DNA of 64,000 bases, from NCBI GenBank assembly GCA_963845755.1, contig CAWJTV010000011.1, positions 768,001-832,000 on the forward strand, read 5' to 3'. The notes under the pieces were generated by a model that was not told where the DNA came from, searched no databases, and was given only the letters and a program-made list of their open reading frames with translations. Every line of letters starts with the position of its first letter. Position 1 is the stretch's first letter. The stretch comes from an uncultured Planctomycetota bacterium. Lineage in GTDB: Bacteria; Planctomycetota; Planctomycetia; Isosphaerales; Isosphaeraceae. The position numbers and the translations under genes are program-made. This document shows positions 624 through 64,000 of the stretch, piece by piece.

Positions 624-636
624 GGTGTTCTCCCCG

Positions 637-1213: not shown

Positions 1214-1275
1214 GGGCGGGCTCGGAGATTGCGACGATCCTCCAATGCATTATGGCGCGTCCTTCGTTTTCCGGA

Positions 1276-1325
1276 CAACCCGGGACAAGCGGATCGGCAA
1301 CCGGGCAGTATCCGGCAAGGGATGA
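1276..1325 (+). promoter_or_regulatory. Conserved ECF-type promoter motif CAACCYGGGANA-N18-CAGTAY..GGGATGA (copy 1)
   Basis: Same bipartite motif with an identical 18-nt spacer precedes all four complete sigma genes. Confidence 0.65.
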
Positions 1326-1361
1326 GCAGGAACCCAGTTTGGCGTCAGGGAGCCCACGGGG

Positions 1362-4334: not shown

Positions 4335-4388
4335 CCGATGCGGCGATCCCATCTGGGTTTCCATCGCGGATTCGCCGATAATCGAACT

Positions 4389-4439
4389 CAACCCGGGATA
4401 AACGGGGCCTCGGCACCACAGTATCTCGCGAGGGGATGA
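4389..4439 (+). promoter_or_regulatory. Conserved ECF-type promoter motif (copy 2)
   Basis: CAACCCGGGATA-N18-CAGTAT-..-GGGATGA. Confidence 0.65.
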
Positions 4440-4452
4440 GAAACGATCGGAC

Positions 4453-4615
4453 TGATTCACCACAGAGTCACAGAGAACACAGAGAAAACCGTCTGCTGCA
4501 TCCTGGTCTCGTCGAGCGCCTGGGAATCGCCTCCTGCCGGAGGATCGCACCGAAGACCAGGATTGGCGAGTCATTCTGTCTTCTCGGTGCTCTCTGTGTC
4601 TCTGTGGTGAGTCAT
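4453..4615. repeat. Inverted CACAGAG-type repeat element (MITE-like) in the 5' leader
   Basis: tgattcaccacagagtcacagagaacacagag ... ctcggtgctctctgtgtctctgtggtgagtca; a second member lies at about 15872-16053. Confidence 0.75.
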
Positions 4616-4652
4616 CCGGGTCTTCGACGTTTCGCCGAGAGAGTCTGCGTTC

Positions 4653-7518
4653 ATGGCGTACCTGGCATCGGGGTCGTTGGTCCGTCAACTCGGTTCGCTC
4701 TTCGAGGGCGGCTCGGTCGCCGGGCTCTCCGACCGGCAGCTCCTGGAACGGTTCAGCACCGGCCCGCGCGATGCCATCGCCGAGGCGGCCTTTGCCGCCC
4801 TGGTGACCCGGCACGGGCCGATGGTCCTGCACGTCTGCCGGCAGACCCTCGGCGACCAGCACCATGCCGAGGACGCCTTCCAGGCGGTCTTCCTCGTGCT
4901 GGTCGCAAGGCCCGGTCGATCCGCGACCCCGACCTGCTGGGAAACTGGCTCTATGGGGTCGCGCCTCCGCACGGCCGCAGTGCGCCCGGCTCCAGCTCGC
5001 CCGCCGGCGCCGGCGCGAGGAGGGCGAAACTATGAGGCGAGGTGGTCCTGGTCCGGGCTGGTCGGCCCCGGTCGAATCGACGGTCCCGCCGGCCGAACAG
5101 CCGGTCCTGGACCGCGAGCAGGCCGAGATCCTGCACGACGAGATCAGCCGCTTGCCGAAGTCGTTCCGCCGGCCGGTGGTGCTCTGCTATTTCGAAGGGC
5201 TCACGCTCGACGAGGCCGCGCGGCGGCTCCGCTGCCCGGCCGGCACGCTCCGCAGCCGATTAGCCCGGGCGCGCGACAAGCTCCGCCGCGGCCTCACCCG
5301 CCGCGGCATCGTCTTGCCCGCCGCCGCCCTGGCCGCAGCGTTGAGCCACCGATCGGCCTCGGCATCCGTCTCATCGCCTCTGTGCGACATCACGACCCGG
5401 GCCGCGATCAGCTTCGCGGCCGGAGACGCCGCCGCGCCCGCCGCGACGGCCCTGGCCCGGGAGGTGCTAAGGTCCATGCTGATTCACAAGTTGAAGCTCA
5501 CTGTGCTGACGATCCTGTTCCTCGGCGCCGTCGCCAGCGGCGCGGGTTCATCGGCCAGGCACCGGAGCGTCAGGCTGGGAAGCCCGACGAGCAAGACCGT
5601 CAGGCTGGAAAGCCGGACCTACGACCGGCCCCGGGCCGGATGTTCGTCGTCGGCCGCGTGCTCGATCCTCAGGGCAATCCGGTGCCGGGCGCCGCGGTGA
5701 TGGTCCATGCGCGGCTCAAGCTGTCGGGACGGGGCGACCCGTACGCGAGATTGAGTCCGGTCCCGATCGGCCACATGGAGAGCGACGGCTCGGGCCAGTT
5801 CCGGATCGATGCGCCCCGTCTCTCATCGTCGCGGTATGACACGTTCTGCGCCGTCGCCCTGGCCCCCGGCTATGGCGTCGGCTGGGTCGAGCTCGATCCC
5901 GACGACGATCAGCCCACCGCCGACATCGCGCTCCGCCCCGAACAGGTGATCCACGGCCGCCTCTTCGACCTGCAAGGCCGGCCCGCCCGGGACGTCACCG
6001 TCTCGGCCGCGTCCATCGGCCGCGACCTTCCCGATGATTCGGCCTCGCGTGGTCGGCGCTTCGAAGGGCTCTCTTATCGATGGACAAATCTTAATCATTT
6101 CCCGGCCTGGCCCAAGCCGGCGACCACCGACGCCGACGGCCGCTTCACACTTCGTGGCGTGGGTCCGGACTCGCGTGTGCGCCTCACCGTCAACGATCCC
6201 CGGTTCGCCCTGCAACGCATTCAGGTCGACACGGATCGCGCCTTGGATTCCAAGCCGCTGACGATGGCACTGGCTACCGGCCCAGACCATCACCGGCCGC
6301 GTGACTTATGCCGACACCGGCCGGCCGGTTCCTCATGCCCGGCTCGAGGTCGGGGCGACCCATAAGGGCGCAACCCAACCCCTCGAATACGAGACCGACG
6401 GCGAGGGACGATTCCGCGCGAATCCCTCGCCAGGTGACCGCTATAGCGTCTCGGCCTATCCCCCGGAAGGGCAGCCCTACTTGGGCGCTGGCCAGTCTTT
6501 CGAGTGGCCAAAAGGGGCGGTCAAGCATTCGGTCGACCTGGCCTTGGCTCGGGGCGTCGTGATCCGCGGCAGGGTCACCGAGGAAGTTTCCGGCAAGCCG
6601 GTCGCCGATGCGAGGGTCTGGCTCACGGGACGGCGCTCGACCGACCGTTCGAATTCACGCAACGCCGAGAGCTGTTCGGGTCCGGATGGCTCGTTCCTGC
6701 TCGCGGTCCAGGCCGCACCGGGCTATCTCGTCGTCGAGGGACCCAGCGACGATTACGTACTCCGGGAGCTCGGCCAACAGATGATCAGCCAGGGCCGGCC
6801 GGGTGGCCAGCGCGTGTACTCTCACAGCTTCATCGCCTGCGACCCCCGATCCGGCAGCAACGGCCTGAAAATCAACGTCGTGCTCCGCCGAGGCATCACC
6901 GTGCAGGGGCGAACCCTCGCGCCGGATGGACAGCCCACCCAGGACACCCGCCTGTTCAGCCGGATCCTGCTCGAACCGTATCCCATACCCTGGCGGAGTT
7001 GGAGCTTTTCTTCCCGTATTGGCACAGTGCGCGACGGCCGTTTCCAGATCCACGGGCTCGACCCCGACATCGCGGTGCCCGTCTACTTCCTTGAGCCGAA
7101 GCGCCGGCTCGGCGCCACGGCCCATCTTTCGGGCAAGTCGGCGGCCGGCGGGCCGGTCACCATCCGCCTCGAACCGTGTGGCACGGCCAAGGCTCGACTG
7201 GTCGAATCCACGGGCAAGCCGATCGCCGGATATCGCGGTTCGCGCCTGATCGCGGTGGTCGTCACTCCCGGCTCGTTGTCCAGCCGCCGACCCCAACCGA
7301 ACGATGACCGCCTGGCAGCCGATGTCGCGAGCATGGGGGAAATCGACCCGATCGACAACGGGAATGGGCCGGTGTCCGATGCCCAGGGACGGATTGCGCT
7401 CCCTGGCTTGATCCCGGGCGCGACCTATTGGGTCTCCCGACTCGGTAAGGAATTTACGGTCAAGCCTGGCCAGACCCTCGACCTGGGCGATATCTTGATC
7501 GAAAGACCACGACCGTAG
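4653..7518 (+). CDS. ECF sigma factor with extracytoplasmic repeats (copy 2; frameshifted)
   Basis: Same architecture as copy 1, reconstructed from ORFs 4653, 4864 and 6301. Confidence 0.88.
5568..5623. repeat. REP-like palindromes (CGTCAGGCTGGAAAGCCTGACCTAC family) translated in frame
   Basis: Two tandem units encode RQAGKPD..RQAGKPDLR; same family at 8568, 12164, ~42530 and 51133/53466. Confidence 0.75.
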
Positions 7519-7593
7519 AGTGGGTGGAGCTGAACCCCTGTCGGCGCAACCCCTCGATCGGCCGAGCCTTGCGTCAGGCGCATTTTTCGGACC

Positions 7594-7644
7594 CAACCTG
7601 GGATACGATGACCTAGGGCGCAACAGTACCTCGCGTGGGGATGA
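7594..7644 (+). promoter_or_regulatory. Conserved ECF-type promoter motif (copy 3)
   Basis: CAACCTGGGATA-N18-CAGTAC-..-GGGATGA. Confidence 0.65.
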
Positions 7645-7671
7645 GTTTCACTTCCAGAGAGGTCCGCGGTC

Positions 7672-10517
7672 ATGGTGTATCTGGCATCGGGGTCGTTGGT
7701 CCGGCAACTCGGGCTCGCTCTTCGAGGGCGGCTCGGCCGCCGGGCTCTCCGACCGGCAACTGCTGGAGCGGTTCAATGCGCGGTCGCGATGCCGGCGCCG
7801 AGGCGGCCTTCGCCGCCCTGGTGACCCGGCACGGACCGATGGTGCTGGGCGTCTGCCGGCAGCTCCTCGGCGATCGACACCATGCCGAGGACGCCTTCCA
7901 GGCCGTCTTCCTCGTCCTGGTCCGCAAGGCGCCGGTCGATCCGCGATCCCGACCTGCTGGGAAACTGGCTCTACGGCGTGGCCCTCCGCACCGCCCGGTG
8001 CGCCCGGCTCCCGGCTCGCCCGTCGTCGCAGGAACGAAGTCTGACCCCGGCGACGGTCCGCCAGCCCCGGTCGAGCCGACCGTCCCGCCGGCCGAGCAGG
8101 CCGTCCAGGCCCGCGAGCAAGCCGAGGCGTTGTACGACGAGATCGAGCGGCTGCCCACGGCCTTCCGACTGCCGGTTGTTCTGTGTTACCTCGAGGGCCT
8201 CACCGTTCACGAGGCGGCGCGACAGCTCCGATGGCCACACGGCACGGTCCGCAGCCGGATGGCCCGGGCACGCGAAAAGCTCCGCCGCGGCCTCACCCGC
8301 CGCGGCATCGTCTTGCCCGCCGCCGCCCTGGCCGCAGCGTTGAGCCACCGATCGGCCTCGGCATCCGTCTCATCGCCTCTGTGCGACATGACCACCCGGG
8401 CCGCGATGAGCTTCGCGGCCGGAGACGCCGCCGCGCCCGCCGCGATGGCCCTGGCCCGGGAGGTTCTGAGGTCCATGCTGATTCACAAGTTGAAGCTCAC
8501 TGTGCTGACGATCCTGTTCCTCGGCGCCGTCGCCAGCGGCGCGGGGTTCATCGGCCAGGCACCGGAGCGTCAGGCTGGGAAGCCCGACGAGCAAGACCGT
8601 CAGGCTGGAAAGCCTGACCTACGACCGGCCCCGGGCCGGATGTTCGTGGTCGGCCGCGTGCTCGATCCTCAGGGCAATCCGGTGCCGGGCGCCGCGGTGA
8701 TGGTCCATGCGCGGCTCAAGCTGTCGGGACGGGGCGACCCGTACGCGAGATTGAGTCCGGTCCCGATCGGCCACATGGAGAGCGACGGCTCGGGCCGGTT
8801 CCGGATCGATGCGCCCCGTCTCTCATCGTCGCGGTATGACACGTTCTACGCCGTCGCCCTGGCCCCCGGCTATGGCGTCGGCTGGGTCGAGCTCGATCCC
8901 GACGACGATCAGCCCACCGCCGACATCGCGCTCCGCCCCGAACAGGTGATCCACGGCCGCCTCTTCGACCTGCAAGGCCGGCCCGCCCGGGACGTCTCGG
9001 TCTCGGCCTTTTCCATCGGCCGCGTCCTTCCGGGAGATCCGCGCCTGCCCCGTGCGCGGTTCGAAGGGCTCTCTTATTTCTGGACACAAATCAATGACTT
9101 CCCGGCCTGGCCCAAGCCTGCGACCACCGACGCCGACGGCCGCTTCACCCTGCGCGGCGTGGGCCGGGACCTGCGTGTTCTCCTCACCGTCAATGATCCC
9201 CGGTTCGCCCTGCAACGAATTCAGGTCGAGACGGATCGCACCTCGGATTCCAAGCAACTGACGATGGCACTGGAGGCCGCTCAGATCATCACCGGCCGCG
9301 TGACGTATGCCGACACCGGTCGGCCGGTTCCTCATGCCCGGCTCGAGATCGAACCGATTCTGAGGGGCGCAACCCGACCCCTCGGATACGAGACGGATGG
9401 CGAAGGACGCTTCCGGGTGAATCCGTCGCGAGGTGACCGCTGTGTCGTCAAAGCCTTCCCCCCGGAAGGGCAGCCCTACCTGACCGCCCGCCAGGATTTC
9501 GAGTGGCCCAAAGGGGCGATCGAGCATCCGGTCGACCTGGCCCTGTCTCGGGGCATCGTGATCCGCGGCAAGGTCACCGAGGAAGGCTCCGGCAAGCCGG
9601 TCGCGGAGGCGAGAGTCTGGTTCCATGGACGGCGCTCGACCGACCGTTCGAATCCGCGCGTGGAGATGAGCGGCTCGGGGCCGGACGGCTCGTTTCTCCT
9701 CGCGGTCCCCACCTCCCCGGGCTATCTCGTCATCGCGGGCCCCAGCGACGATTACGTACTCCGGGAGATCGGCCGGCGGATGCTGGACGAGGGCCTGCCG
9801 GGTGGCCGGCGCATGTACTCCCACGGCTTCATCGCCTGCGATCCCCGATCCGGCAGCAAGGGCCTGGAAATCAACGTCGTACTCCGCCGAGGCATCACTG
9901 TGCAGGGTCGGGTCCTGGCGCCCGATGGGCAGCCAACCCAGGAGACCTGGATGTTCAGCCGGATCATGCTCGATCCCGCTCCCGTATCATGGCGGATTTG
10001 GGGGGTTCCTTCCAATTACGGCACGGTGCGCAACGGCCGCTTCCAGGTCCACGGACTCGACCCCGACATTGAGGTGCCCGTGTATTTCCTCGAGCCGAAG
10101 CGCGGACTCGGCGCCGTGGCCCATCTTTCAGGCAGGTCGGCGGCTGGCGGGCCGGTCACCATCCGACTCGAACCGTGTGGCACGGCCAAGGCTCGGCTGG
10201 TCGACTCCATCGGGAAGCCGATCGCTGGATATCGTGGCTCGCGCCTGATTGCATTTGTCGTCACTCCCGGCTCATTCTCCAGTCGCCCCCAGGATAACGA
10301 TGGCCGTCTGGCAGCCGATGTTGCAGGCTTGAGCGAAATGGACCCGATCAACTTCGGGAATAGCCCGGTGTCCGATGCCCAGGGGCGGATTGCGATCCCG
10401 AGCTTGATCCCCGGCGCGACCTATCGGGTCTTTCGACTCAGTAAGGAATTCACCGTCAAGCCCGGCGAGACGCTCGAGCTGGGTGATGTCCGGATCGAGA
10501 AGCCACGGCCACGGTAG
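7672..10517 (+). CDS. ECF sigma factor with extracytoplasmic repeats (copy 3; 5' frameshifts)
   Basis: The 960-aa ORF covers most of the gene; sigma regions 2 and 4, TM helix and repeats are present. Confidence 0.9.
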
Positions 10518-10530
10518 GGTGTTCTCCCCG

Positions 10531-10800
10531 TCAATCCTGAGATCCGAGCAGTCGCTCACGAACCGATTCGATCGAGGAAACGCGACCGCTCCGGACATCC
10601 TCGCGCGCCCGCTCCACCACGTCCCGGAACGACGGGTCGTGTTCGATCAGGTCCTCGAGAAACCCGGAGTCGTCCGGACGAATCGGCAGCAGCTCGAAGA
10701 TCGGCTGACCCTCCCGGGTCACGACCACGGGCGACGTCTGGCACTCGACCGCATAGCGTTCAAGGTTCGCTTTCGCTTCCTGTAGGTCGATCACTGTCAT
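10531..10800 (-). CDS. Phd/YefM-like antitoxin (second copy)
   Basis: Close paralogue of 637-906. Confidence 0.75.
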   Translation of the reverse strand: MTVIDLQEAKANLERYAVECQTSPVVVTREGQPIFELLPIRPDDSGFLEDLIEHDPSFRDVVERAREDVRSGRVSSIESVRERLLGSQD

Positions 10801-11101
10801 GAGCCGTGTACTCCTTCCCCAGGACATAGAGCTGATTCCCGCGCTTCTCGCCCACCACGAGCACGTTCACGGTCCGTTCTTCTTCGGCGACATCATACAA
10901 GATACGATAGTCGCCCAGGCGGAGTTCCCAGGTCGCCACCGGATTCGGACGCATCCGTTTGACGCGACGTGTTTCTTGCGTGGGCTGATGGCGGAGATGA
11001 AGCTCGATGCCATCAAGTACAATCCGCTGTGCGTATCGAGTAAGCCCGCCCAGATGACTGGCCGCTTCATCCGCGATGTTGATCGCATATGCCTCAGCCA
11101 T
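10760..11101 (-). CDS. RelE/ParE family toxin (second copy)
   Basis: WELRLGDYRILYDV motif; close paralogue of 866-1213. Confidence 0.82.
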   Translation of the reverse strand: MAEAYAINIADEAASHLGGLTRYAQRIVLDGIELHLRHQPTQETRRVKRMRPNPVATWELRLGDYRILYDVAEEERTVNVLVVGEKRGNQLYVLGKEYTAHDSDRPTGSESEP

Positions 11102-11162
11102 GGGCGAACCCGGAGATTGGGACGGTATTCCCATGCATTATGACGCTCTTCCCTTTTCCGGA

Positions 11163-11213
11163 CAACCCGGGAGAAAATCATCGGCATCAGGGCAGTATCC
11201 CGTGTGGGGATGA
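11163..11213 (+). promoter_or_regulatory. Conserved ECF-type promoter motif (copy 4)
   Basis: CAACCCGGGAGA-N18-CAGTAT-..-GGGATGA. Confidence 0.65.
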
Positions 11214-11269
11214 AAACGACACCGCGTGCGACGCTCGGAACGATCTCGACCAGGAGAGGGCCTGACGGT

Positions 11270-14191
11270 ATGTCGCCTGTGACAACTCCATCGGTGGTCC
11301 GGCAGCTCGGGTCGCTGTTCGACGGCGGTTCCGTCGCCGGACTCTCCGACCGTCAGCTCCTCGAGCGGTTCAACGACCGCCGCGATGCCACCGGCGAGAC
11401 CGCCTTCGCCGCCCTGGTGGCCCGGCACGGGCCGATGGTCCTGCACGTCTGCCGGCAGATCCTCGGCGACCACCAGCATGCCGAGGACGCCTTTCAGGCC
11501 GTGTTCCTCGTCCTGGCGCGCAAGGCCCGGTCGATCCGCGACCCCGACCTCCTGGGAAACTGGCTGTATGGGGTCGCGTTGCGAACCGCCCGCAAGGCAC
11601 GAACCCAACTTGCCCGCCGGCGCAAGCATGAGGAGGGCGACGCCATGAACCGTCCCGGCACATTGGTCGAACCGATGGTCGAGCCGGCCGGAGGGTCGGT
11701 CCTGGCGCGCGAGCAGGCCGAGATCCTTCACAGCGAGATCGACCGCCTGCCCGGCCCGTTTCGCCTGGCGGTGGTGATGTGCTATCTCGAGGGCCTGACC
11801 CTCGACGAGGCCGCCCGACGGCTCAAATGCCCGGCCGGCACGATCCGCAGCCGCCTGGCCCGGGCCTGCGACAAGCTCCGCCGTGGACTCACGCGCCGGG
11901 GCGTCGTCGTGTCTGCGGCCGGCCTGGCCGCCACCTTGAGCCCTCGAGCCGCATCGGCAGCCGTCTCATCCCCCTTGTGCGAGATGACGACCCGGGCCGC
12001 GTTCGCGTTCGCGGCCGGACAGGCCGCCGCGCCCGCCGCGACGGCGATTGCCCAGGAGGTGATCCGATCCATGTTCGTGACCAGACTGAAATTCACCGTG
12101 ATGCTCTTGCTGTTCCTCGGTGCCGTCGCCGCCGGTGCGGGATTGGTTGGGCAGGAGCCAGACCGTCAGGCTGGAAAGCCTGACGTACCGCGTCAGGCTG
12201 GAAAGCTTGACCGACACGCTGCCCCGGGGCGGATGACCGTCGTCGGCCGGGTGTTCGACCCGTCGGGCAAGCCGGTGCCGAACGCGTCGGTGATGGTTTA
12301 CGCGCGGCTCAAGCAATTCGCGAATCCGGTCATCCGGGCCGGCGGCCTCGGCCTGGGCCCGCCGGTGACCGATTCCGGGCGCGTGCGAGGATTCGGGCCG
12401 GTTCCGGCTCGACGCGGCGCGGACCGCGTCGTCGCGAAACAGCCTGCTCGTCGCGGTTGCCCTGGCGCCGGGTTACGCGATGGGCTGGGTCGAGCTCGAC
12501 CCCGACGCCGATCAGCCCACCGCCGAGATTGCACTCCCGCCCGAACAGATCGTCCGGGGCCGGCTCTTCGACGTACAGGGCCAGCCCGTCCCGCGCGGCG
12601 GTCGTGGTGCGGTCGGTCAGCCTGATCGTCGATCGCCAACTGGGCAGTCCGCTGTTCCGGCCCGATTACTTCGATCGGCCGACGATCGACCTGCCCGCCT
12701 GGCCCAGACCGGCGATCAGCGATGACGCGGGCCGCTTCACCCTCCGCGGCCTGGGGCCCAAATTCGTGACCCAGGTCACCGTCGATGACGCGCGGGGCGT
12801 CCTTCCGCCAACCCTGATCCAGACCGACCACACCATCGACCCCAGAGACTTTGGCACGCTCTTACCCGTGATCAAGGTCGACACGGGCCCGGATCCCAAG
12901 CCGCTGACGATCGCCTTGCAGCCGACCCGCACCGTTTCCGGGCGCGTCACTTACGCCGATACCGGCCAGCCCGTCCCCCACGCTCGGCTCCTGCTCGGGA
13001 CCACGCTAGTCCAGGCCGATGGCGAGGGACGGTTCCGCGCGACCACGCCTCATGGCCGCGAGTTCGGGAACATCAAGGCTCAGTCGGCGGACGCACTGCC
13101 ATACCTGAATGTGTCGAAGTCGTTCAACTGGCCCAAAGGCGCGGTTGAGCATACGGTCGACCTGGCGCTGCCTCGCGGCGTGGTGATCCGCGGCAAGATC
13201 ACCGAGGACGGCACCGGAAAACCGATCGTCGGTGCGGTCGTGCTGTTTACCCCCTACAGCTCGGCACGAGCGAACAAGCAGGAGAGACACAATCCGACCT
13301 CGTCCGCCACCGACCCCGACGGCGCGTTCCAGGTCGTGGCGCCGGCCGGTCCGGGCTACCTGGTCGTCCAGGGTCCCAGCGACGATTACGTGCTCCGGGA
13401 GTTCGGCGCGAAGGGTGGGGAGTTCTATGCCGAGCCGGGCAACCGGCGTTTCTACGCCCACGCCTACACGTTCCTCGACCTCAAACCCGAGAGCGTCAGC
13501 CAGGACGTCAACCTCACGCTCCGTCCCGGCACGACCATCACGGGCCGAGTCCTCGGGCCGGATGGCCAGCCCGTCCGTGACGCATGGATCTTCAGCCGGG
13601 TCATCCTGCACGAGGTCCCCTCGGGAGGGTGGAAGATCTGGAATGTCAACTACGGCCGAGGCCGAGGCCAGGTTCACGACGGCCGCTTCGCGCTGCACGG
13701 GCTGGGTCCGGACGAGGAGGTCACGGCGTACTTCATCGAGCCGAAACGGGACTGGGGCGCCGCGGTCAAAGTCTCGGCCAGATCGGCCGCGGCCGGGCCT
13801 CTCACAATTCAGCTCGAGCCCTGCGGCACGGCCACCGCGCGGCTGGTCGGACCCGATGGGAAGCCGCTCGTCCGCTACACCTACCCGTTGATCTCGATGG
13901 TCGTCACGCCGGGCCTGCCATTCCAGGGCAACCTGGCGAAACCCGGCGGCCTCTTGGCCAACGCGGTGCGACTCGACGAAGTCGCCCCGCGCCATTACCA
14001 GAACCCTCGCGAATCCGATGCCCAGGGGCGGATCACGTTCCCGGCCTTGATCCCGGGTGCGCACCTATCGCCTCATCCACCCCAGCCAAGACGCAGGTGG
14101 ACGCATCCAGATCCGCAAGGATTTCACCGTCAAGCCTGGCGAGACCCTCGATCTGGGTGATATCCTGATCGAGAAGCCGCAAGCCCGGTAG
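11270..14191 (+). CDS. ECF sigma factor with extracytoplasmic repeats (copy 4; frameshifted)
   Basis: ORFs 11204 and 12457 plus a terminal frame DFTVKPGETLDLGDILIEKPQAR*. Confidence 0.88.
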
Positions 14192-14229
14192 AGATGTTCG
14201 AATCCATCCGCAAAGGCGAGGCACACGCC

Positions 14230-51176: not shown

Positions 51177-51387
51177 AGCGCTTCACATTTGGGTTGCGCA
51201 CACAAACGGCGTCACTTCGGCGGCCTGAGGGGCCGCGGGAGCCCAGCCCGGGGTGCAAACCCCGGGACTCGGTCAAACCGCGCCTCCAGGTGCACCCTGA
51301 AGGGGTGCCGGAGGGCTCTCCCGCGGCCCTATAGGCCGCCGGAATGTGGGTTTGCGTCGGACCCCGGGTTTCACCCGGGGCTGGGCT

Positions 51388-53398
51388 CCTATGACCCCAA
51401 CAGAGTGGCATATAGCCCGTTGATACCTGATACTGTCATCCCTCTGAGCCGCCTCAGAGGGCGTTGAACCCGACCCTGACGCCGGATTGCTGCTTGCATG
51501 GAGGTGATCGTCCTCGCGACGTCCTACCACGGAGAGCGGACATGACACGACGATCGGCCTTGGGACGGCACAGCCTCCGCATCCACCGGGAGTTCGTCCC
51601 CTCCCGCTGCCAGCTCCGCGCCCTGGCCTTGGCCTTCGAGCAGGCCCTCCCCATCATCCGGAGGCCGCTGACGACGCCGGCACGACCACAAATGTTCGTT
51701 GATTCTGATTTGAATTCGTTCACACAACCAGGCCGTTCGGGGGCCCTCCGATGACCGAACCCATCGACCGCCGCGCCGCCTTGTACGCCAGGGTCTCCAC
51801 CGAACAGCAGGCCCAAGAGGACACGATCGCCAGTCAACTCGATCTGTTGCGCCGGCGGATCCAGGCCGATGGCCTGACCGTCGCCCAGGAACTCCAATTC
51901 GCCGACGACGGTTATTCGGGCGAGACCTTCCGGCGCCCCGCCCTGGAACGGTTGCGCGACACGGCCGCCGCCGGGGCGATCGACCGGATCTACATCGAGT
52001 GTCCCGACCGATTGGCACGGGATTACCCGTATCAGATGGTCGTGGTCGACGAGCTGCGCCGCCAGGGCGTCGAGGTCGTCTTCCTCAATCACGACCTCGA
52101 TGAGAGCCCCGAGGGTTGACTGCTGTTGCAAGTCCAGGGGATCATCGCCGAATACGAGCGGGTCAAGGCCCGTGAGAAGTGTCGCCGCGGCCGGCTCTAC
52201 GCGGCGCGGTCGGGCCAGGTCAGCGTCCTGGGCGGCGCCTTACGGATACCATTACCACACCAAGCAGGAGGGAGGTGGCGCGGCCCGGTATGTCGTCCAG
52301 TTCGCCGAGGCCCAGGTGGTCCGAGAGATCTTCACCTGGGTGGGGATCGAAGGATGTTCGCTCAGTCAGGTGTGCCGACGATTGCGAGAACGCGGGCTCC
52401 TTACCCGCACGGGCAAGGTGCATTGGGATCGGGCCACGGTCCTGGGCATGCTGCGCAACCCGGCTTACATGGGGACAGCCCACTTCAACAAGGTCCATTG
52501 CGTCCCGGCCCGTCCCCGGTTGCGCCCGCGTCGGGGAGTCCCCGAGTTTCCACGGCGACACACCGCCAAAGCGGCGACGCCCCCCGAGGACCAGATCCCG
52601 ATCCCGGTGCCGGCGATCGTGGAGCCGGCCCTGTTCGAGGCCGTGCAGGAGCGGCTGGCGGAGCACCGCCGACATCCCGGCCAGGCGGCCCCCCGGCCGC
52701 GCCATCTGCTGGCGGGCTTGGTGGTGTGCCAGCGGTGTGGTTACGCGTATCGCGGTCGGGCCATGAAGAAGAAGGGAGGGAGTCGCTATGGCTATTACCG
52801 CTGTTATGGGGCGGAGGCCGAGTCCTTCGCCGGCCGGGCCCGGATCTGCGACAATCCGGCGATCCGGATCGAACGTCTGGACGAGGCGGTGTGGTCCGAT
52901 GTGCGCGGGTTGTTGCTGGAGCCGGAGCGGTTGGCTGAGGAATTCGAGCGGCGGTTGAGTCGGGCGAACCGAGGCGAGGGGACGACTCAGTCGAGTCGGA
53001 GCCTGGACAAGTTGATCGGTCAGGTCCGCCGCAGGCTGGCGCGGCTGGTGGAGATGTACGCCGACGGATACATCGAGAAGGAGAAATTCCAGAGAGATAT
53101 GGATATTTCTCGAACACGAATGTCAGAATTGGAGTTGGAGCGTCGGGCGATGGACCAGGAGGAACAGCAACGGGAGGAGTTACGGTTGGTGATGGGTCGG
53201 ATCGAGGAATTCGGGGCGCAGGTACGCGCTGGTTTGGATACCAGCGACGTGGCGACGCGTCGTCGGATCATTTGTGCACTGGTCAAGAAGGTCGAGATCG
53301 ATGCCGAGGCGGTTCATATTGTGTATCGTGTGAGCCCTCGCCCTTTTGCCCAAACGGCCCCGACAGACGGTAACATGCCACACTGTTGGGGCCGTTCC
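51388..53398 (+). mobile_element. Minimal large-serine-recombinase element, copy A
   Basis: About 2.0 kb, nearly identical to 59478-61489; CC core at both junctions; sub-terminal IR CCCCAACAGAGTGGCAT / ATGCCACACTGTTGGGG. Confidence 0.88.
51542..51754 (+). CDS. 70-aa protein translationally coupled to the recombinase
   Basis: GGAGAG RBS; ATGA overlap with recombinase start; identical in copy B. Confidence 0.65.
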   Translation: MTRRSALGRHSLRIHREFVPSRCQLRALALAFEQALPIIRRPLTTPARPQMFVDSDLNSFTQPGRSGALR

Positions 53399-53617
53399 CG
53401 CGGCCCTACAGGCCGCCGGAGATCGGCTCGCCTCGTGTCTGCAACTCGATCGTTACGCGCGCTAGAAAGCCCGACCTACTGGTCAATCAAGTTCTCCAGC
53501 GAAAACCCGACAGGTCGCTTCAAGATATTCTTGGCAAACATCGCATCAACGAGCAATTTAAGAGACCCAGCTTTTTCGACCGTTGTATATGAGCGGCTTT
53601 CAAAGGCGTCGTCGTAG
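51751..53617 (+). pseudogene. Large serine recombinase, copy A (CGA>TGA at 52117-52119 plus 2-nt deletion near 52235)
   Basis: YARVS, DDGYSG, RPALERL, DRLAR, PYGY, CQRCG..YYRC zinc ribbon; lesions seen by comparison with copy B. Confidence 0.8.
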
Positions 53618-53779
53618 GGTGGGTCGAACGCCGCTTTGGGGCGTCAGGCCCACCGGACACCGCTCGCATCACGACAGGCTCGCCGCCATCGCGGGGCCGG
53701 AACGCTTCTGGTACGATCGCGTAGGATTGGAGCTAGCACTTCCGCAGGAGAACACCCGAGCGCTCCCGAGAGAATCGCC

Positions 53780-56700
53780 ATGAAACGACCACTTTCGGCC
53801 TCGCATCGATCCGGTCGATCCGCGTTATGGCCTCGAGGCGAGCGACTCGAAGACCGATCTCTGATGAGCGTCCAGTTCACCATCGACCCGCTCCAGGACG
53901 TCCATCCCATCTCGCGATACATCTACGGCGTCAACCAGCCCCTGGCCGGATATACCAATTTTACCTACCAGCGACTGGGAGGCGATTTGACGACGGACTG
54001 GAACTGGGAGAATGGCGACAGCAACGCCGGCCACGACTACTACTATCAGAATGAGAGCCTCAGCGATTTCACCGGCGGCACCGATGGGCCTGGCGGCGCG
54101 GCCGTCCCGATCATTCAGAGCGACCACGCCCAGAACGCCGCCACCTTGCTCACGGTTCCCATCAACGGCGACGTCGCCGCCAACACGGCCAATGACGATG
54201 TCCTGTACGACCCCGTCACCACGGTGACGACTTCCGTCAGCTCCACGGCCACAGTCATCCCGGTCGCCAGCGCCGCCGCCATCCCCACCACGCCCTACTA
54301 CATCGTCGATCGATGGCGAGGAAATGGAAGTCACCAGCGTCAACCTGACGCAGAATGACCTCACGGTGGTCCGAGGGATCAGTGGGAGCACGGCGACACC
54401 CCAGGCCAACGACCCGGTCTATCTTTCCCCGGATGTGAGGAACAGCGGGGCGAATTACTTGCAGACCCAGTTCGAGCAAGAGCTGCCGATGAAGCCCGGC
54501 GCCCCCGGCTCGTTCACGCTCAATCCCACCCCCGGCGGCCCGGTCTACGCGGACGAGTTCGTCAACTGGGTCAATACCATGTATCCCTACGGCGAGACCA
54601 GCACGACCACCCCTATCTGGTACGAGCTGGACAACGAGCCGGACCTCTGGAACTCCACGCACACCGAGATCCAACCGAACCCCGTGACCTACGCCGAGGT
54701 CGTCCAGGATAGCATCGACTACGCCGAGGCCATCAAGTCGGTCGAGCCGAACGCGCTGGTCTTCGGGCCATCCAGCTACGGCTGGGAAGGATTCACCTCG
54801 CTGCAAGACGCGCCGGACGCCGATGGCCGCAACTGGCTGGATGATTATCTCCAGCAGATGCAGCAAGCCTCGGTCACCGCCGGAGAGCGGTTACTCGACG
54901 TGCTCGATATTCACTTCTACACATCAACGCCCGACGACCCGGCCGACATCGTGCAGGCCCCGCGCTCGCTCTGGGACCCGACCTACATGGAAAATAGCTG
55001 GATCGCCCAGAGCATTCCCGGGCCGATCGAGCTACTACCGCGGTTGCAAGCCGCCATCAACCAGTACGACCCCGGCACGAAGCTGTCGATCAGCGAGTAC
55101 AACTACGGCGGCGGCGACGAGATCGCCGGCGCGATTGCCGAGGCCGACGCCCTGGGGATCTTCGGCGAGCAAGGACTGTACGCCGCCAGCGAGTGGCAGT
55201 TGAGTTCCAACGAATCCTACATCGCTGCCGCATTCAACATGTATCGGGACTTCGACGGCAACGATAGCACGTTCGGCGACACCTCCGTTTCCGCCCGCAC
55301 CAACGACGTCACCGACACCTCGATCTATGCGAGCGTCGACTCGTCCGACACCAACGTGATGACCCTGGTCGCCATCAACAAGAGCACCCAACCGCTGACG
55401 GCGACCTTGCAGCTCGATCACGTTCAGCCGGGCGCGACGGCCGCCATTTACCAATTGACCAGCGGCTCGACGACGCCGCAGTATGCCGGCACGGTCACGA
55501 TCACCAATCCGGCCGACTTCAGTGACCTGATGCCGGGCTCCAGCGTAACGACGATCCGCATCATCTCGCCGAGCGGCCTGGGCGACGCCCCGACCGTGGC
55601 CACGCCCGCCCAGGCTTCGCCTCCCACCGTCATGGGCGTCACCACCGACCTGAGCGTCGTGGGGGCCGATGCCGGCGGGGCGTCAAACTTGACTTACACC
55701 TGGAGCACCACCACGGCGCCGGCGCCGGTCACCTTCTCGGTCAACGACACCAACGCCGCCCAGGATACCGTCGCCACGTTCCATGCGGTTGGCACCTATT
55801 CCTTCCTGGTGACGATCGCCAATCCCGGCGGCTATTTCGCGACCAGCAGCGTGAATGTCACGGTCGATCCCACGCTGAGCCACATCACGCTGACCCCTTC
55901 CGATCCGACGGCGACCGAGCAGGGAGACCAGCAATTCACAGCGACGGGCACCGACCAGTTCGGCAACGCACTGAGTGCCCCACCGAGTTATTCCTGGTCG
56001 GCCGGCGCCGGCTCCATCTCCAGCGCCGGCGTATTCGTGGCCCCGGCCGCGCCGGGGAATGTCACGATCACCGCGTCCGCCGACGGCGTGGAGGGCAGCA
56101 CCACGGATTCCGTGGTCAACCCGACGACGATCACCGTCAGCGCCCCGACCGACCTCGCCCTGCGCAACGCCGTGGCCCAGGCCAACACCGACGCCGCCAA
56201 CGGCGACGCGGCCACGATCGTCTTCGCCCCCAGCCTGGCCCGCGACATCATCGCGCTGAGCTCCGGGCCGCTGGACCTGACCGCCGGCACCGGCGCCATC
56301 CGGATCGAGGGCGGCGGCCTGATCACCCTCAGCGGCGACGGCGACACCCAGGTCTTCCAGATCGACAGCGGCGCCCAGGTCACTCTGGACGGGCTGACGA
56401 TCGAGGGCGGCAGCGCCGGCAGCAGCGGCGGCGGCATCGACAACTCTGGCACCCTGACCATCACGAACTCCACGCTCGCCGATAACACCGCCGGCACTTC
56501 AGGCGGCGGCATCGACAACACGGCAAGTCTTACGGTGACCAACGTGACCTTCACGGGCAACTCCGCTCCGACCGGCGGCGGCATCAACAATGCCGGCACC
56601 GCGATGATTGCGGATGCCACGTTCAACGGCAACGATGCGACCGGTACCAGCGGCACCGGCGGAGCGGTCGCCAGCACGGGCACCCTGACGCTGACGAACT

Positions 56701-58586
56701 CCACCCTCGCCGACAACTCCTCATCGAATGCCGCCGGCGGCATCGCCAATACCGGCCAGATGACCGTGACGGATTCCACCATCGACGACAACACCGGTTC
56801 CTACATCGCGGGCGGCATCAACAATGTCGGCACCATGTCCGTAACGAACTGCACCCTCGCCGGGAATGATGCCTACCTGGGCGGCGGCATCTACAACGGC
56901 AACTATTATGGCGCCTCCGGCAACTTGACACTGACGAATGACACGATCACGAGCAACTTCGCCGCCTATGGCGCCGGCGGTGGCATCTACATGGCGAACG
57001 GCTCTTACAGTACAACCGGCGGTAGCACGCTGACCCTGTACAACACCCTGATCGCCGGTAACTACGCCTCGGGCAACAGCGGCGATCCCCTCAGCAATCC
57101 GGTCCTCCCCTTCGGCCCGGACATCCAGGTCCATAGCGGCACCGTCACCGGCTCGAACAACCTGATCGGAGACGGCCAGGGCCTGACGGGCATCAGCAAC
57201 GGCGATGCCAACCACAATCAGGTCGGCACACCCGCGGCCCCGATCGATCCGCTCCTGGCCGCGCCGATCGAGAACGTCGATTTCACGCTGGCCCTCACCG
57301 CTCCGGTCGTCGCGTTCAATATCGCCCAGATCCCGCTGATGAACAACGGCGGGCCGACCGAGACGATCGCGCTGCTCCCCGGCAGCCCGGCCATCGGCGC
57401 CGGCACGGCGATCACCGGCGTCACCACCGACCAGCGCGGGCTCCCGCTCGACTCGCCCCCCGACATCGGGGCCTACCAGGTCCAATCCGCCTCGTCCTCG
57501 CTCGCCATCGCTTCGATCGGACCCATCGCGCCCGCCACGCGCAACACGCCCGTCACCGCGATCGATGTGACTCTCAGCGAGCCCGCCGGTCCCGGCGGAT
57601 TCACCGCCGGCGCCCTCATCCTGACCGACGACGGCGGCCCGAACCTGATCACCGGCGCGGTCGCCGTCACCCTCGTCTCCGGCTCGACCTATCAGATCAG
57701 CGGCCTTTCCAGCCTCACCGGCGCCGAGGGCTCCTACACGCTGACGGTCCACGCGGCCGACATCCCGGACTCATCAGGCAACCTGGGGTCTGGCTCGGCG
57801 TCGACCTCGTGGCTGATGGACACCACGCCGCCCACCAGCACGGTCAACGCCCTGCCGTCCCGGACGACCGCGATGGCCTTCACCGTCTCGGTGACCGCGT
57901 CCGACCCGGCCGGCGCGAACGGCAGCCCGCCCTCCGGCGTCGCCTCGATCGCCATCGACGTCTCGACCAATGGTGGACCGTTTATCCGATTTGCCACGGT
58001 GACGCCGGCCCAATTCTCGGCGACATTCACGGGCCAGGCCGGCAACACCTATGCCTTCTACAGCATCGCGACCGACAGGGCCGGCAACGTCCAGCCGACT
58101 CCCACCACCGCCCAGGCGACCACGACCCTGATCGGCACGACCTCGCCCACCCCCACACCAACACCGACTCCCACCCCCACGCCAACCCAGACGGTGATCA
58201 TCGGCGAGCAACCGCTTTTCCAGCGCAGGCTCAAGAAAGGCAAGCCCGTCGGCAAGGCGGTCCTATCCGGCTTCACGCTCGACTTCAGCGTCCCGCTCAA
58301 CTCCACGGCCGCTATGAACGCCGCGAACTATCAGCTCGACACCATCACCACCAAGCGGGTCAAGAAGGCAACTCATCAAATTCTACATACGATCACAAAT
58401 TTAAGAATATCATATCTTGTGACCAGCGACACGGTCGAGATCGCGTTCAGAGCCAAGGAGACGTTCCCGACAGGCGGTCAACTCACGGTCCTCGGCGGCC
58501 TGACGACGGCCTCGGGCGGCACGCTGAGCGGCAACGCGGTGTTCGCGATCTCCAAGGGCGGGAAGAGCCTCGGCCCATCGTCGTGA
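53780..58586 (+). CDS. Secreted multidomain GH44 endoglucanase/xyloglucanase with Ig-like, GGAI beta-helix and choice-of-anchor Q regions (frameshift near 54310)
   Basis: ERLEDRSLMS (LEPR-XLL), ISRYIYGVN, WNWEN..SNAG.D, LDNEPDLW, ISEYNYGG; GGGI.N repeats; NNGGPTET.ALLPGSPAI..TDQRG..DIGAYQ; PT linker. Confidence 0.88.
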
Positions 58587-58680
58587 GTCCTCGATCCCGA
58601 CTCCCGACGGCGGGGATACCGATGCGCGAATCCTGGCGAGTTGGTGGCGGTGATGTTAGAGTAGAAGCCTGGAGGGTCCC

Positions 58681-58947
58681 ATGAACATCACGCCCGAGAT
58701 CCGGCAGGCGATCGAACGATCCGGAGGCGAGCCACTCCGGCTGGAAGATCCCTTGAGCCGGGAGTCGTACATCCTCCTGAAGGCTTCCGCTTTCGAAAGG
58801 ATCCAGCAGCTCCTCGCTCCGCTCATCAGCAAACAGGATGACTGGCAATGGGCGGACGCCTATCCCGCAGCCGATGAGGCGTTCCGCGAGGGTTGGGAAG
58901 CACCCGGTATGTCGGATTACGACGAGTACGAGAAACACCGGCCGTGA
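58681..58947 (+). CDS. Putative antitoxin
   Basis: 88 aa, acidic C-terminus (GWEAPGMSDYDEY); GTGA overlap with the toxin. Confidence 0.65.
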   Translation: MNITPEIRQAIERSGGEPLRLEDPLSRESYILLKASAFERIQQLLAPLISKQDDWQWADAYPAADEAFREGWEAPGMSDYDEYEKHRP

Positions 58948-59294
58948 ACCGTGGCGATGTCGTGCTGGCGTTCTACCCGTTTGCCTCCGGATCCGGCGGC
59001 AAGAGACGCCCAGCTCTCGTCGTGCAAAACGATGCCGACAATGCGCGGATGGGGGCCACGATTCTGGCCCAGATCACGACGAACCTGGCCCGAGCGGGCG
59101 AGCCAACCCACCTGCTGATCGAGGCGTCCACGATCGAGGGCCAGCAATCCGGTCTGCTGCACGATTCACTCATATCGTGCAATAACCTGGTCACGGTCGA
59201 ACTGACGCGCATTCACAAGGTGATCGGTCGCCTTCCGGCAACGACGATGCAGAAGATCGACGATTGCCTGAAGGCCGTACTCGGTCTGCCGTGA
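58944..59294 (+). CDS. PemK/MazF family toxin
   Basis: RGDVVL..YPF..G.KRRPALVVQND..ITT..GL..DS...IGRL..CLKAVLGL. Confidence 0.88.
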   Translation: MNRGDVVLAFYPFASGSGGKRRPALVVQNDADNARMGATILAQITTNLARAGEPTHLLIEASTIEGQQSGLLHDSLISCNNLVTVELTRIHKVIGRLPATTMQKIDDCLKAVLGLP

Positions 59295-59410
59295 CTCGGG
59301 GATGGCCAGAAGCGCTCCGTTGGCCTTCATCTGGCTTCACCAAGCGGGCAACCTCTCGAAGTCAGGGCTGCCCCTGGGCCGGCAAGCCCAGTCATCCTCA
59401 TCCCAGGTCG

Positions 59411-59477
59411 TTAGAGCGCGTAACGATTGCGTTGCATACACGAGGCAAGCCGATCACCGGCGGCCTATAGGGCCGCG
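59411..59477 (-). repeat. End of a second member of the MITE-like host repeat
   Basis: Reverse complement closely matches 53399-53464 and ends CGTTACGCGCTCTAA. Confidence 0.7.
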
Positions 59478-61126
59478 GGAACGGCCCCAACAGTGTGGCA
59501 TGTTACCGTCTGTCGGGGCCGTTTGGGCAAAAGGGCGAGGGCTCACACGATACACAATATGAACCGCCTCGGCATCGATCTCGACCTTCTTGACCAGTGC
59601 ACAAATGATCCGACGACGCGTCGCCACGTCGCTGGTATCCAAACCGGCGCGTACCTGCGCCCGAATTCCTCGATCCGACCCATCACCAACCGTAACTCCT
59701 CCCGTTGCTGTTCCTCCTGGTCCATCGCCCGACGCTCCAACTCCAATTCTGACATTCGTGTTCGAGAAATATCCATATCTCTCTGGAATTTCTCCTTCTC
59801 GATGTATCCGTCGGCGTACATCTCCACCAGCCGCGCCAGCCTGCGGCGGACCTGACCGATCAACTTGTCCAGGCTCCGACTCGACTGAGTCGTCCCCTCG
59901 CCTCGGTTCGCCCGACTCAACCGCCGCTCGAATTCCTCAGCCAACCGCTCCGGCTCCAGCAACAACCCGCGCACATCGGACCACACCGCCTCGTCCAGAC
60001 GTTCGATCCGGATCGCCGGATTGTCGCAGATCCGGGCCCGGCCGGCGAAGGACTCGGCCTCCGCCCCATAACAGCGGTAATAGCCATAGCGACTCCCTCC
60101 CTTCTTCTTCATGGCCCGACCGCGATACGCGTAACCACACCGCTGGCACACCACCAAGCCCGCCAGCAGATGGCGCGGCCGGGGGGCCGCCTGGCCGGGA
60201 TGTCGGCGGTGCTCCGCCAGCCGCTCCTGCACGGCCTCGAACAGGGCCGGCTCCACGATCGCCGGGACCGGGATCGGGATCTGGTCCTCGGGGGGCGTCG
60301 CCGCTTTGGCGGTGTGTCGCCGTGGAAACTCGGGGACTCCCCGACGCGGGCGCAACCGGGGACGGGCCGGGACGCAATGGACCTTGTTGAAGTGGGCTGT
60401 CCCCATGTAAGCCGGGTTGCGCAGCATGCCCAGGACCGTGGCCCGATCCCAATGCGCCTTGCCCGTGCGGGTAAGGAGCCCGCGTTCTCGCAATCGTCGG
60501 CACACCTGACTGAGCGAACATCCTTCGATCCCCACCCAGGTGAAGATCTCTCGGACCACCTGGGCCTCGGCGAACTGGACGACATACCGGGCCGCGCCAC
60601 CTCCCTCCTGCTTGGTGTGGTAATGGTATCCGTAAGGCGCACCGCCCAGGACGCTGACCTGGCCCGACCGCGCCGCGTAGAGCCGGCCGCGGCGACACTT
60701 CTCACGGGCCTTGACCCGCTCGTATTCGGCGATGATCCCCTGGACTTGCAACAGCAGTCGACCCTCGGGGCTCTCATCGAGGTCGTGATTGAGGAAGACG
60801 ACCTCGACGCCCTGGCGGCGCAGCTCGTCGACCACGACCATCTGATACGGGTAATCCCGTGCCAATCGGTCGGGACACTCGATGTAGATCCGGTCGATCG
60901 CCCCGGCGGCGGCCGTGTCGCGCAACCGTTCCAGGGCGGGGCGCCGGAAGGTCTCGCCCGAATAACCGTCGTCGGCGAATTGGAGTTCCTGGGCGACGGT
61001 CAGGCCATCGGCCTGGTTCCGCCGGCGCAACAGATCGAGTTGACTGGCGATCGTGTCCTCTTGGGCCTGCTGTTCGGTGGAGACCCTGGCGTACAAGGCG
61101 GCGCGGCGGTCGATGGGTTCGGTCAT
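59454..61126 (-). CDS. Large serine recombinase, copy B (probably intact; one G missing in a homopolymer near 59660)
   Basis: 527-aa ORF with all LSR motifs; terminal frame ..LVKKVEID..HCWGRSRGPIGRR*. Confidence 0.9.
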
Positions 61127-61489
61127 CGGAGGGCCCCCGAACGGCCTGGTTGTGTGAACGAATTCAAATCAGAATCAACGAACATTTGTGGTCGTGCCGG
61201 CGTCGTCAGCGGCCTCCGGATGATGGGGAGGGCCTGCTCGAAGGCCAAGGCCAGGGCGCGGAGCTGGCAGCGGGAGGGGACGAACTCCCGGTGGATGCGG
61301 AGGCTGTGCCGTCCCAAGGCCGATCGTCGTGTCATGTCCGCTCTCCGTGGTAGGACGTCGCGAGGACGATCACCTCCATGCAAGCAGCAATCCGGCGTCA
61401 GGGTCGGGTTCAACGCCCTCTGAGGCGGCTCAGAGGGATGACAGTATCAGGTATCAACGGGCTATATGCCACTCTGTTGGGGTCATAGG
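59478..61489 (-). mobile_element. Minimal large-serine-recombinase element, copy B (inverted)
   Basis: Same ends and the same target context GGGCTGGGCT-CC-CGCGGCCCT as copy A. Confidence 0.88.
61123..61335 (-). CDS. 70-aa protein coupled to the recombinase (copy B)
   Basis: Identical to 51542-51754. Confidence 0.65.
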   Translation of the reverse strand: MTRRSALGRHSLRIHREFVPSRCQLRALALAFEQALPIIRRPLTTPARPQMFVDSDLNSFTQPGRSGALR

Positions 61490-61974: not shown

Positions 61975-64000
61975 ATGTCCAAGTTCTTCATCTCCTACCG
62001 CCGCGACGACAGCGCGGCCGATGCCGGGCGGCTCCATGAGAAGCTGACGGACCACTTCGGGCGCGGCAGCATCTTCATGGACATCGATGCCATGAGCCTG
62101 GGCCGCGATTTCCGCAAGCAGCTCGCCGACGCCGTCAACCAGTGCGATGTCTTGCTGGCGGTCATCGGCGACCACTGGCTGGATGCCCGCGATCCCAAGA
62201 AGGGCACTCGGCGTCTGGATGACCCGGAGGATTGGGTGCGGATCGAGATCGCGGCGGCCCTGGCACGGGACATCCCCGTGGTGCCCTTGCTCGTGGGACA
62301 CCAGACCGCGATGCCGCGCACGGCCGATTTGCCCGACGATTTGAAGGAGCTGGCCTATCGCCACGGCACCACCGTCCGTTCCGGGGAGGACTTCCATGGC
62401 CAGGTCAACCGGCTGATCAAGGGCCTTGAGGGTCTCGGCAAGGCGGGCCGCATCGCCGACGAAGACCCGAAGATGGCCCTGCGGCGTGCCTACGAGATGC
62501 TGGAGCTGATGGTCCGTGAGGTTTATGAACGGCGGTTCCACGAGCCGCCCGGGACCCGTTCCCTGGAGAACCTCGTCCAGCGCCTGGACCAGGCGGGTTG
62601 CCTTCCGGCCCGGTTCGATCTCGCCGCGATGATCCAGAAGCTCGGCGAGACGGGGACCGCCCAACGGGACGAGGTGTTCACCCCGGGCGACGTCCACCAG
62701 GCGCTGGCGCAACTGACGGAGGTCCTGAAGTGGTACATGGAAGGGGAGCCGCCGGAATCGCTCGGCCCGCATCCCGGACCGGAGCCTCCGCGGCCGACCG
62801 GACCTGAGGCGCGGATCGCCGTCGTACCCAAGGGACTGCGGTCGTTCGACGCCGACGACAGTAGTTTCTTCTTGCAACTCCTGCCCGGCCCGCGCGACAC
62901 GGACGACCTGCCCGAGAGCCTCCGCTTCTGGAAGCACCGCATCGAGGCTCGGGACGATCCGGCGTTCACTGTGGGGGTGATCTACGGCCCTAGCGGTTGT
63001 GGTAAGTCCTCGCTGATGAAGGCCGGGCTGCTGCCGAGATTGGCCCGGCGGATCATCCCCGTCAACATCGAAGCGACGCTCGAGGAGACCGAGATCAAGC
63101 TGCTCAACACCTTGAGGAGACGCGTCCCCGGGCTCCCGGGCGATCGCGACTTGACCCGGTCCCTCGCCGCGCTCAGGGCGGGCGAGGGCCTGCGATCCGA
63201 CCAGAAAGTCCTCATCGTCCTCGATCAGTTCGAGCAGTGGCTGCACGCCCATCGGAGCGATCGCGACACAAAGCTGACCCGGGCGCTGCGGCAGTGCGAC
63301 GGCGATCGCGTCCAGGCCATCGTCATGGTACGGGATGACTTCTGGGTCGCCCTGAGCCGGTTCATGGGCGAGCTGCGCATCGAGCTCGTTCAGGGCCGGA
63401 ACGCCGCCCTGATCGACCTGTTCGACCCGATCCACGCCGCGAACGGTGCTGTCGGAATTCGGCCGGGCGTACGGCCGCCTGCCCCGCGGCAACGAGGCTC
63501 TATCGGGCGACCAGGAGAGCTTTCTCACCCAGGCCATCGGGGGCCTGGCACCGGATGGGCGGGTCATCCCCGTCCGGCTGGCCCTGTTCGCCGAGATGGT
63601 CAAGGGCCGGCCGTGGTCGCCGGCGACGCTCAAGGATGTGGGCGGCACCCAGGGGATCGGTGTCGCCTTCCTCGAAGAGACGTTCAAATCCACCGCACTG
63701 AGAAGTCACCAGAGGGCCGCCCTGGTCGTGCTCAAGGCTTTACTCCCCGAGAGCGGCACCGCCATCAAGGGCCACATGCGGTCGCACGATGACCTGGCCA
63801 TGGCGTCGGGATACGCCGCGCGCCCGAGCGACCTGGACAACCTGCTGCGGACCCTCGATCGCGACATGCGACTGATCACGCCCACCGATCCCGAAGGGTC
63901 GGAATCCGAGGGCATGGAGGGTCTCGCTCGATCGGGCCGGTTCTACCAACTGACGCATGACTATCTCGTCCCCTCGATCCGCGACTGGTTGACCCGCAAG
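61975..64000 (+). CDS. TIR + DUF4145/HEPN-like + nSTAND1-type NTPase protein (runs off window; frameshift near 63440)
   Basis: FFISYRRDDS..FMDID..DWVRIEI (TIR); PKGLRSF..GPSGCGKSSLMKAGLLPRL..VLDQFEQW..VRDDF. Confidence 0.85.

Follow-up and report, generated by a model that had tools for sequence, protein, structure and literature searches.

Two copies of a 2-kb unit, A and B, lie in inverted orientation in the window (the whole stretch of DNA that was analysed, 64 kb), and the stretch flagged in the initial annotation is the right end of copy A (Table 1). The unit contains only two ORFs, orfA and the gene for a large serine recombinase. It is present in six copies in the genome, which share at least 99.5% identity and have different host flanks, so that the ends of the element are fixed. 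These ends are inverted arms, symmetric around CC; the dinucleotide is found at both ends in four of the six copies and has one mismatch in the other two. In all six copies, a dispersed palindromic repeat is interrupted at the identical point. Intact target repeats occur at 73 sites of at least 30 bits in the genome, and a reversed-sequence control gave none at 25 bits or more. The att sites are short, with a central dinucleotide and no longer target duplication, and intact empty sites are present in the genome. We infer that the unit is a minimal insertion element that is moved through a circle by its large serine recombinase. There is no tRNA or tmRNA gene within the 64-kb window, the target being the dispersed repeat. 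The named homologues suggest a host from the Planctomycetota. In 400 other genomes of the phylum no match was obtained at E ≤ 1e-50, a search with a partial query and at most four scored candidates per genome, which says little on the range of the element. A lone 47-nt right end, probably a deletion remnant, is located on another contig within a copy of the repeat (G000:C9:40974-41020). The target repeat (window 51221-51266) scored 27.6 bits against the Rfam family Acido-Lenti-1, under the gathering score of 37, and this RNA family may overlap with the target repeats of the element. A link of the repeat to a Y1 transposase was not found, six of the ten Y1 loci examined having no site inside 1.5 kb.

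Table 1. Positions in the window of the two element copies, their genes and the sequences at their ends
Feature	Position	Strand	Remarks
Copy A	51388-53398	+	both CC cores counted in
Left part of interrupted REP-like palindromic repeat (host half of target)	51221-51387	.	repeat flanks 6/6 copies
Left crossover dinucleotide CC, copy A	51388-51389	+	
Left att arm	51390-51409	+	imperfect inverted repeat of right arm; 16/20 bases complementary
Stranded C-terminal recombinase tail (putative)	51390-51467	+	25 codons + TGA; in frame only once the ends join; core LIPD[TS]VI...[TS]xLR
Hairpin	51440-51461	.	overlaps tail codons 17-24; stem kept, loop variable; no T run after it
orfA, conserved 70-aa ORF, candidate directionality factor	51542-51754	+	stop overlaps recombinase start (ATGA)
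Large serine recombinase gene up to crossover	51751-53398	+	PF00239, PF07508, PF13408; 550 codons if intact, by arithmetic
Right att arm plus CC core (53397-53398)	53375-53398	+	codes MPHCWGRS
Host-derived 72-residue tail and stop (53615-53617), copy A	53399-53617	+	begins in right part of repeat
Copy B	59478-61489	-	cores 61489-61488 and 59479-59478; tail 61487-61410; 1-nt gap near 59660
Host-derived 7-residue tail and stop, copy B	59454-59477	-	

The recombinase has a PF00239 catalytic domain (E 4e-30, residues 9-156) with the motif YARVS, and the Pfam profiles also detected the PF07508 recombinase domain and the PF13408 zinc ribbon, with DUF4368 not reported. The model of a relative, P0147, has long helices and matches the structures of SPbeta integrase (Z 15.6) and LI integrase (Z 13.7). 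With a catalytic domain, PF07508, PF13408 and an inserted coiled coil, the enzyme is predicted to be a large serine recombinase. According to the initial annotation its frame is free of stops throughout the element; this does not hold for the assembled sequence, in which both window copies are broken: in copy A a TGA stands at 52117-52119 and 2 nt are missing near 52234, and copy B lacks 1 nt. The remaining four copies are likewise broken, so that none of the six carries the full ORF. The defects are not the same in all copies and are concentrated at GTCGAC, at GGCGCC and in one run of G; GTCGAC is also rarer than expected in the genome (observed/expected 0.5). In contigs assembled from short reads, a C at 52117 and an extra GC behind 52234 were each present in three of the four runs, the fourth having no coverage there. 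The defects of the six copies are thus probably assembly errors, and we regard them as long-read errors at methylated motifs and homopolymers. All four runs come from a single study, and the element copies are merged in their contigs, so that these present an intact consensus, not the intactness of copy A itself.

Re-reading of the letters bore out the frame across the crossover as first annotated: it gives MPHCWGRS over the CC core and is then continued by host-coded residues, 72 in copy A and seven in copy B. The lengths of these host-coded tails in the six copies are 72, 7, 18, 7, 21 and 32 residues. Since the crossover dinucleotide forms bases 2-3 of a codon near the 3' end of the gene, the integrated gene ends in arbitrary target sequence. 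Joining of the ends attaches a fixed tail that is kept at the left end of the element; past the left CC, the recombinase frame reads YDPNRVAYSPLIPDTVIPLSRLRGR followed by a stop, and the hairpin in this stretch lies where it had been placed. The residues next to the core are coded on both sides by the inverted att arms. By its reading frame, crossover in the coding sequence would create a new C-terminus, as in att-in-integrase systems. The three functional tail variants first proposed did not stand, because the tails taken from the host have random lengths and sequences, and the true contrast is therefore between presence and absence of the conserved tail. A 25-codon open frame at the left end is by itself no evidence for such a tail, for one is found at 68% of 20,000 random contig positions. 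Such frequent chance frames speak for a reading in which the tail is a by-product, with the att arm, operator and hairpin of the left end kept as DNA and any extension after the last folded strand tolerated by the enzyme; we think this very unlikely, for reasons given below.

The homologues behave as the initial annotation expected, with no stop before att: 105 of the 108 that could be scored (120 were listed, and 12 were not scorable) arrive at the core codon stop-free, and the other three end 1-4 residues short of it. Behind the core codon they carry a variable number of residues, from 0 to 229 with a median of 19, and this tolerance of host tails is again in keeping with a by-product. The fixed codon phase of the core argues against it. 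In eight of nine distant loci (32-48% identity) where the arms match clearly and the cores are identical, the core occupies codon bases 2-3, and in the ninth the gene is broken. Twenty distant loci were examined in all, 11 of which were ambiguous or mis-called by automatic end-calling. Applied to seven plasmid loci of isolates, the same end-calling gave the expected phase three times and an ambiguous result four times. At locus L043 a left arm shorter by 1 nt breaks the frame, which counts against the preferred reading given below. An in-frame fusion of recombinase and orfA in a Cupriavidus element was rejected, as four copies place the end elsewhere. Multi-copy relatives in culturable bacteria include Cupriavidus sp. 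KK10, with four copies on plasmid p1, and Rhizobium leguminosarum, with three places on pRL3.

A second family in the same genome, also of 2 kb with orfA and recombinase, has about 47% enzyme identity to the first, six copies, the core AT and the motif HCWGR at the end of the enzyme. Its arms are perfect over 20 nt, and its copies (G000 contigs C3, C6, C16, C22, C24 and C47) are inserted, in both orientations, at the PQG motif in the reverse-transcriptase genes of group II introns. In the right flank of one family-2 locus, L015, further att-arm sequence precedes the reverse-transcriptase gene, as if the element had inserted in the end of another copy. Distant subfamilies (L028, L030, L031, L055-L058 and L061; L001-L004, L032 and L087) seem likewise to have mobile genes as their targets, and what we take to be IS66 and IS5-like transposase motifs can be read in their flanks.

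The circle-form tail had been proposed for comparison among homologues, and it is kept at protein level, with purifying selection in four subfamilies. Near-duplicates were removed before the selection tests (50 loci were reduced to 28), and L043 (broken frame), L017 (left end cut by the contig), L022/L040 (indel pair) and L024 (single) were left out. In tail codons 9-22, which are beyond the att arm, 38 elements from six groups together have 48, 26 and 76 changes at codon positions 1, 2 and 3 (P about 2e-5 by permutation); the per-family permutation tests of these codons were borderline (P 0.057 and 0.061). Codon models were fitted on element-body trees for the four groups that were large enough, with the null kappa fitted on a grid and several windows tried. 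They gave an omega for the tail of 0.35 in family 1 (eight elements, P 0.004), 0.41 in family 2 (15 elements, P 0.002), and 0.16 (five elements, P 5e-7) and 0.18 (six elements, P 9e-6) in two distant groups. For comparison, the end of the enzyme body has a pN/pS of 0.30-0.36, and in two neutral windows, one past the stop of family 1 and one in the distal tail of family 2, omega was 1.17 and 1.06. The motif LIPD[TS]VI and the pair LR are common to both families, with codons changed synonymously. The tail sequences of the distant subfamilies are widely different, and one distant pair, L032/L033, gave no selection signal in the tail (omega 0.94).

Two parts of the tail agree with retention as DNA, as a by-product would require: codons 1-8 are the att arm and their omega is not below 1, and codons 17-24 of family 1, whose third positions are invariant, form the hairpin. 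A strong hairpin stem is present in eight of nine family-1 left ends, and no terminator-like or sigma-70-like site was called, in a search of the left end for one promoter type. The family-1 signal is more than the hairpin, because codons 9-16, which lie upstream of it, by themselves give an omega of 0.19 (P 0.001), compared with 0.33 for codons 9-25 (eight related elements, P about 8e-4). Moreover, four separate subfamilies show wobble at the third positions of the recombinase frame, for which a DNA site gives no reason, and indels within the tail are multiples of three (L026; L022 versus L040), while shifts of -2 and +1 occur past the family-1 stop. An antisense ORF across the tail was rejected, for its start codon is unconserved and upstream stops occur in many elements; in family 2, the antisense frame with shared third positions has an equally low omega despite its stops and unconserved start. 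From these comparisons, the tail is very probably both translated with the enzyme and kept by selection as a part of it. A conserved loop in the recombinase domain of P0147 (residues 128-140) is similar to the family-2 tail motif RLRPxxGxxxQPR; 14 of 3,000 shuffles were as good in a post hoc test that may overcall, for an unrelated family-1 match scored 1 in 3,000.

Alternatively, translation across the junction might matter and not the tail protein, ribosomes opening the hairpin or coupling to orfA and thereby setting expression from the circle. The family-2 tail stops at codon 52-53, overlapping the orfA start, in 15 of 15 elements; a four-copy Cupriavidus element has a similar 50-codon frame that ends on the orfA start; and the family-1 tail passes over the conserved hairpin, all of which would fit such a role. 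But coupling requires an open frame and not conserved residues, and in one and the same frame selection acts on codons 9-30 and codons 31-48 evolve neutrally; the family-1 tail, furthermore, stops at codon 26 or 30, well before orfA. We therefore hold translation without a function of the peptide to be improbable, though somewhat less so than a mere by-product.

The joined form itself was sought in proteins and contigs. Longer proteins with the family-2 tail gave 35 matches, most of which are fusions of target sequence and tail from left ends, and only two, P0147 and P0124, are junction forms. P0147, encoded on a metagenome contig of 1,509 nt, is a recombinase of family 2 whose junction and tail are exactly as predicted, and P0124 crosses the junction into the tail with one extra codon; each comes from one contig, and a tandem copy would yield the same junction as a circle. 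For family 1 no junction protein was found, the single match being host sequence plus tail. No circle or junction of the element is present in the assembly, and none is listed in the contigs of the four short-read runs, which drop rare forms. Viral contigs gave no useful junction or left-end match, and one match proved unrelated.

As to the position of the tail on the enzyme, alignments of the P0147 model with the LI, SPbeta, Bxb1 and phiC31 integrases end at residues 398-406, and the core codon is residue 420. The canonical recombinase fold thus ends about 18 residues ahead of the crossover, so that the integrated gene retains the whole of it and the tail is, in the model, an appendage behind a Pro-rich linker. 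In two AlphaFold2 runs of P0147 the tail was of low confidence, with pLDDT below 50 over residues 400-472 in one of them; the second had block means of 32-62 and a poorly folded body. The integrases of LI/A118, SPbeta, Bxb1 and phiC31 are like the element enzyme in domain order, coiled coil and inverted att arms around a central dinucleotide, and their ordered folds end where the linker of the element enzyme begins.

The product of orfA has no Pfam family, and its best atlas match (0.89) is a hypothetical protein. The gene is kept in all subfamilies examined, with 20 of 24 loci passing the motif filter, and because it is coupled to the recombinase gene, the element probably cannot make one protein without the other. 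Considering its size, position and conservation, OrfA is a candidate directionality factor. In the accessible part of PMC11722253, such factors (RDFs) are described as binding the second DNA-binding domain near the coiled-coil hinge and as functional when fused to the integrase C-terminus. We assume, with a probability of about one half, that the tail-less enzyme with OrfA excises and the tailed enzyme integrates. The integrated element would make a complete yet tail-less enzyme, which with OrfA as directionality factor would carry out excision, and the gene on the circle would make the tailed enzyme. There the Pro-rich linker would tether the tail next to the second DNA-binding domain, the binding place of directionality factors, and the tail would bias the enzyme to integration even with OrfA supplied from the same transcript. 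Since the tail is present on the circle only in this model, the state of the DNA would set the direction of the next reaction.

The evidence from selection and junctions would fit equally if the tail were a general activity or stability element, the integrated enzyme being weak or short-lived both ways and the rare circle making the fully active enzyme, so that resident copies stay quiet and the circle reinserts efficiently. The modest copy numbers agree with this, namely six and six for the two families in this genome and ten in another (G087), against about 70 free targets here, as does the proposal of McMurdie et al., in the portion of PMC3146451 available, that dsiB may be fully functional only on the circle. 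The integrated form, on the other hand, retains the whole canonical fold; near-identical copies occur at many sites, so excision or copying works; and the corresponding change in phage Mx8 alters specificity without inactivating the enzyme, according to the available text of PMC6070905. We consider a general role of this kind possible but about half as probable as a change of direction. Equally tentative is an extension of the preferred reading, in which the two families would belong to a widespread 2-kb class with a built-in switch, recombination adding or removing a short, conserved peptide, a tethered antagonist of the co-expressed OrfA, and the two-gene operon coding for an excisionase when integrated and an integrase when circular. 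If this were true, the enzymes in databases would be the excision-state form, mis-annotated with host tails.

The layout as such is already published, for Mx8, for archaeal integrases and, in 2011 and with the same hypothesis, for the serine recombinase DsiB. The Mx8 integrase is a tyrosine integrase. The initial annotation named tyrosine integrases alone as precedents; DsiB, a serine recombinase of about 540 aa from the ssrA islands of Dehalococcoides, is a serine precedent (McMurdie et al. 2011; PMC3146451, as far as its text was accessible). The same part of the paper states that the 3' end of dsiB always overlaps attL, with no stop within the island and a variable C-terminus, and offers function on the circle beside a trivial explanation and with no test. 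The serine recombinase gene of the present element is similar in that its 3' end overlaps att without a stop of its own. The main differences are that DsiB belongs to a six-gene module with ssrA as target, whereas the element here has 2 kb, two genes, several copies and a dispersed-repeat target, and that a conserved stranded tail is not described for DsiB in the accessible sections of PMC3146451, whereas the tail here shows selection. In the myxophage Mx8, attP lies inside the int coding sequence, and the gene acquires a new 3' end on integration while the enzyme stays active (PMC6070905, available part). The element's enzyme works like the Mx8 system but is not a member of it, having serine recombinase domains and not tyrosine ones; also, Mx8 is a phage with fixed attB sites and thus a replacement tail that is likewise fixed, in contrast to the arbitrary replacement tails of the serine enzyme here. 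In the archaeal SSV-type 'suicidal' integrases, which are tyrosine enzymes, the recombination site is also inside the gene, and an intact gene serves as a kind of directionality control; integration splits the gene into two inactive halves and cuts off the catalytic domain, as far as described in the accessible part of PMC8371274, whereas all canonical domains precede the core in the recombinase here. An att-dependent tail is not described for phage large serine integrases in the sections of PMC11722253 that were available.

Among serine-recombinase transposons, Tn4451/Tn4453 with TnpX and Tn5397 with TndX have circle intermediates and 2-bp cores. They are larger elements, and TnpX is controlled by a junction promoter and is not known to be controlled by completion of the protein. 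DUF4368 is common in the TnpX/TndX clade and was not reported for the enzyme here. The accessible main text of Durrant et al. (PMC10083194) mentions a TndX-like clade and does not mention an att-in-recombinase layout. In the full-text literature searched, which covers few subscription journals, no description was found of the 2-kb family or of selection on a stranded tail. Taken on comparative evidence, which is good, the tail appears to be a real and family-wide feature, and the mechanism is proposed. The choice between insertion and excision by serine integrases is central to their biology and to genome engineering, and a tail added or removed by recombination would give an element of two genes a covalent control encoded in the state of its DNA. 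Family members mined from genomes carry host-derived tails without the selected one, and it may thus be the wrong form of the enzyme that screens have assayed or dropped.

In the window, copies A and B enclose about 6 kb (53399-59477), and recombination between the copies could invert this segment. It contains a gene of glycoside hydrolase family 44 and, at 58893-59294, a PemK/MazF-like ORF. In window 1-14200, four to five paralogous units with many broken frames form an array at a spacing of 3.0-3.7 kb. A gene with a TIR domain plus a STAND NTPase adjoins copy B (61975-63792), and its product presumably resembles an anti-phage defence protein.
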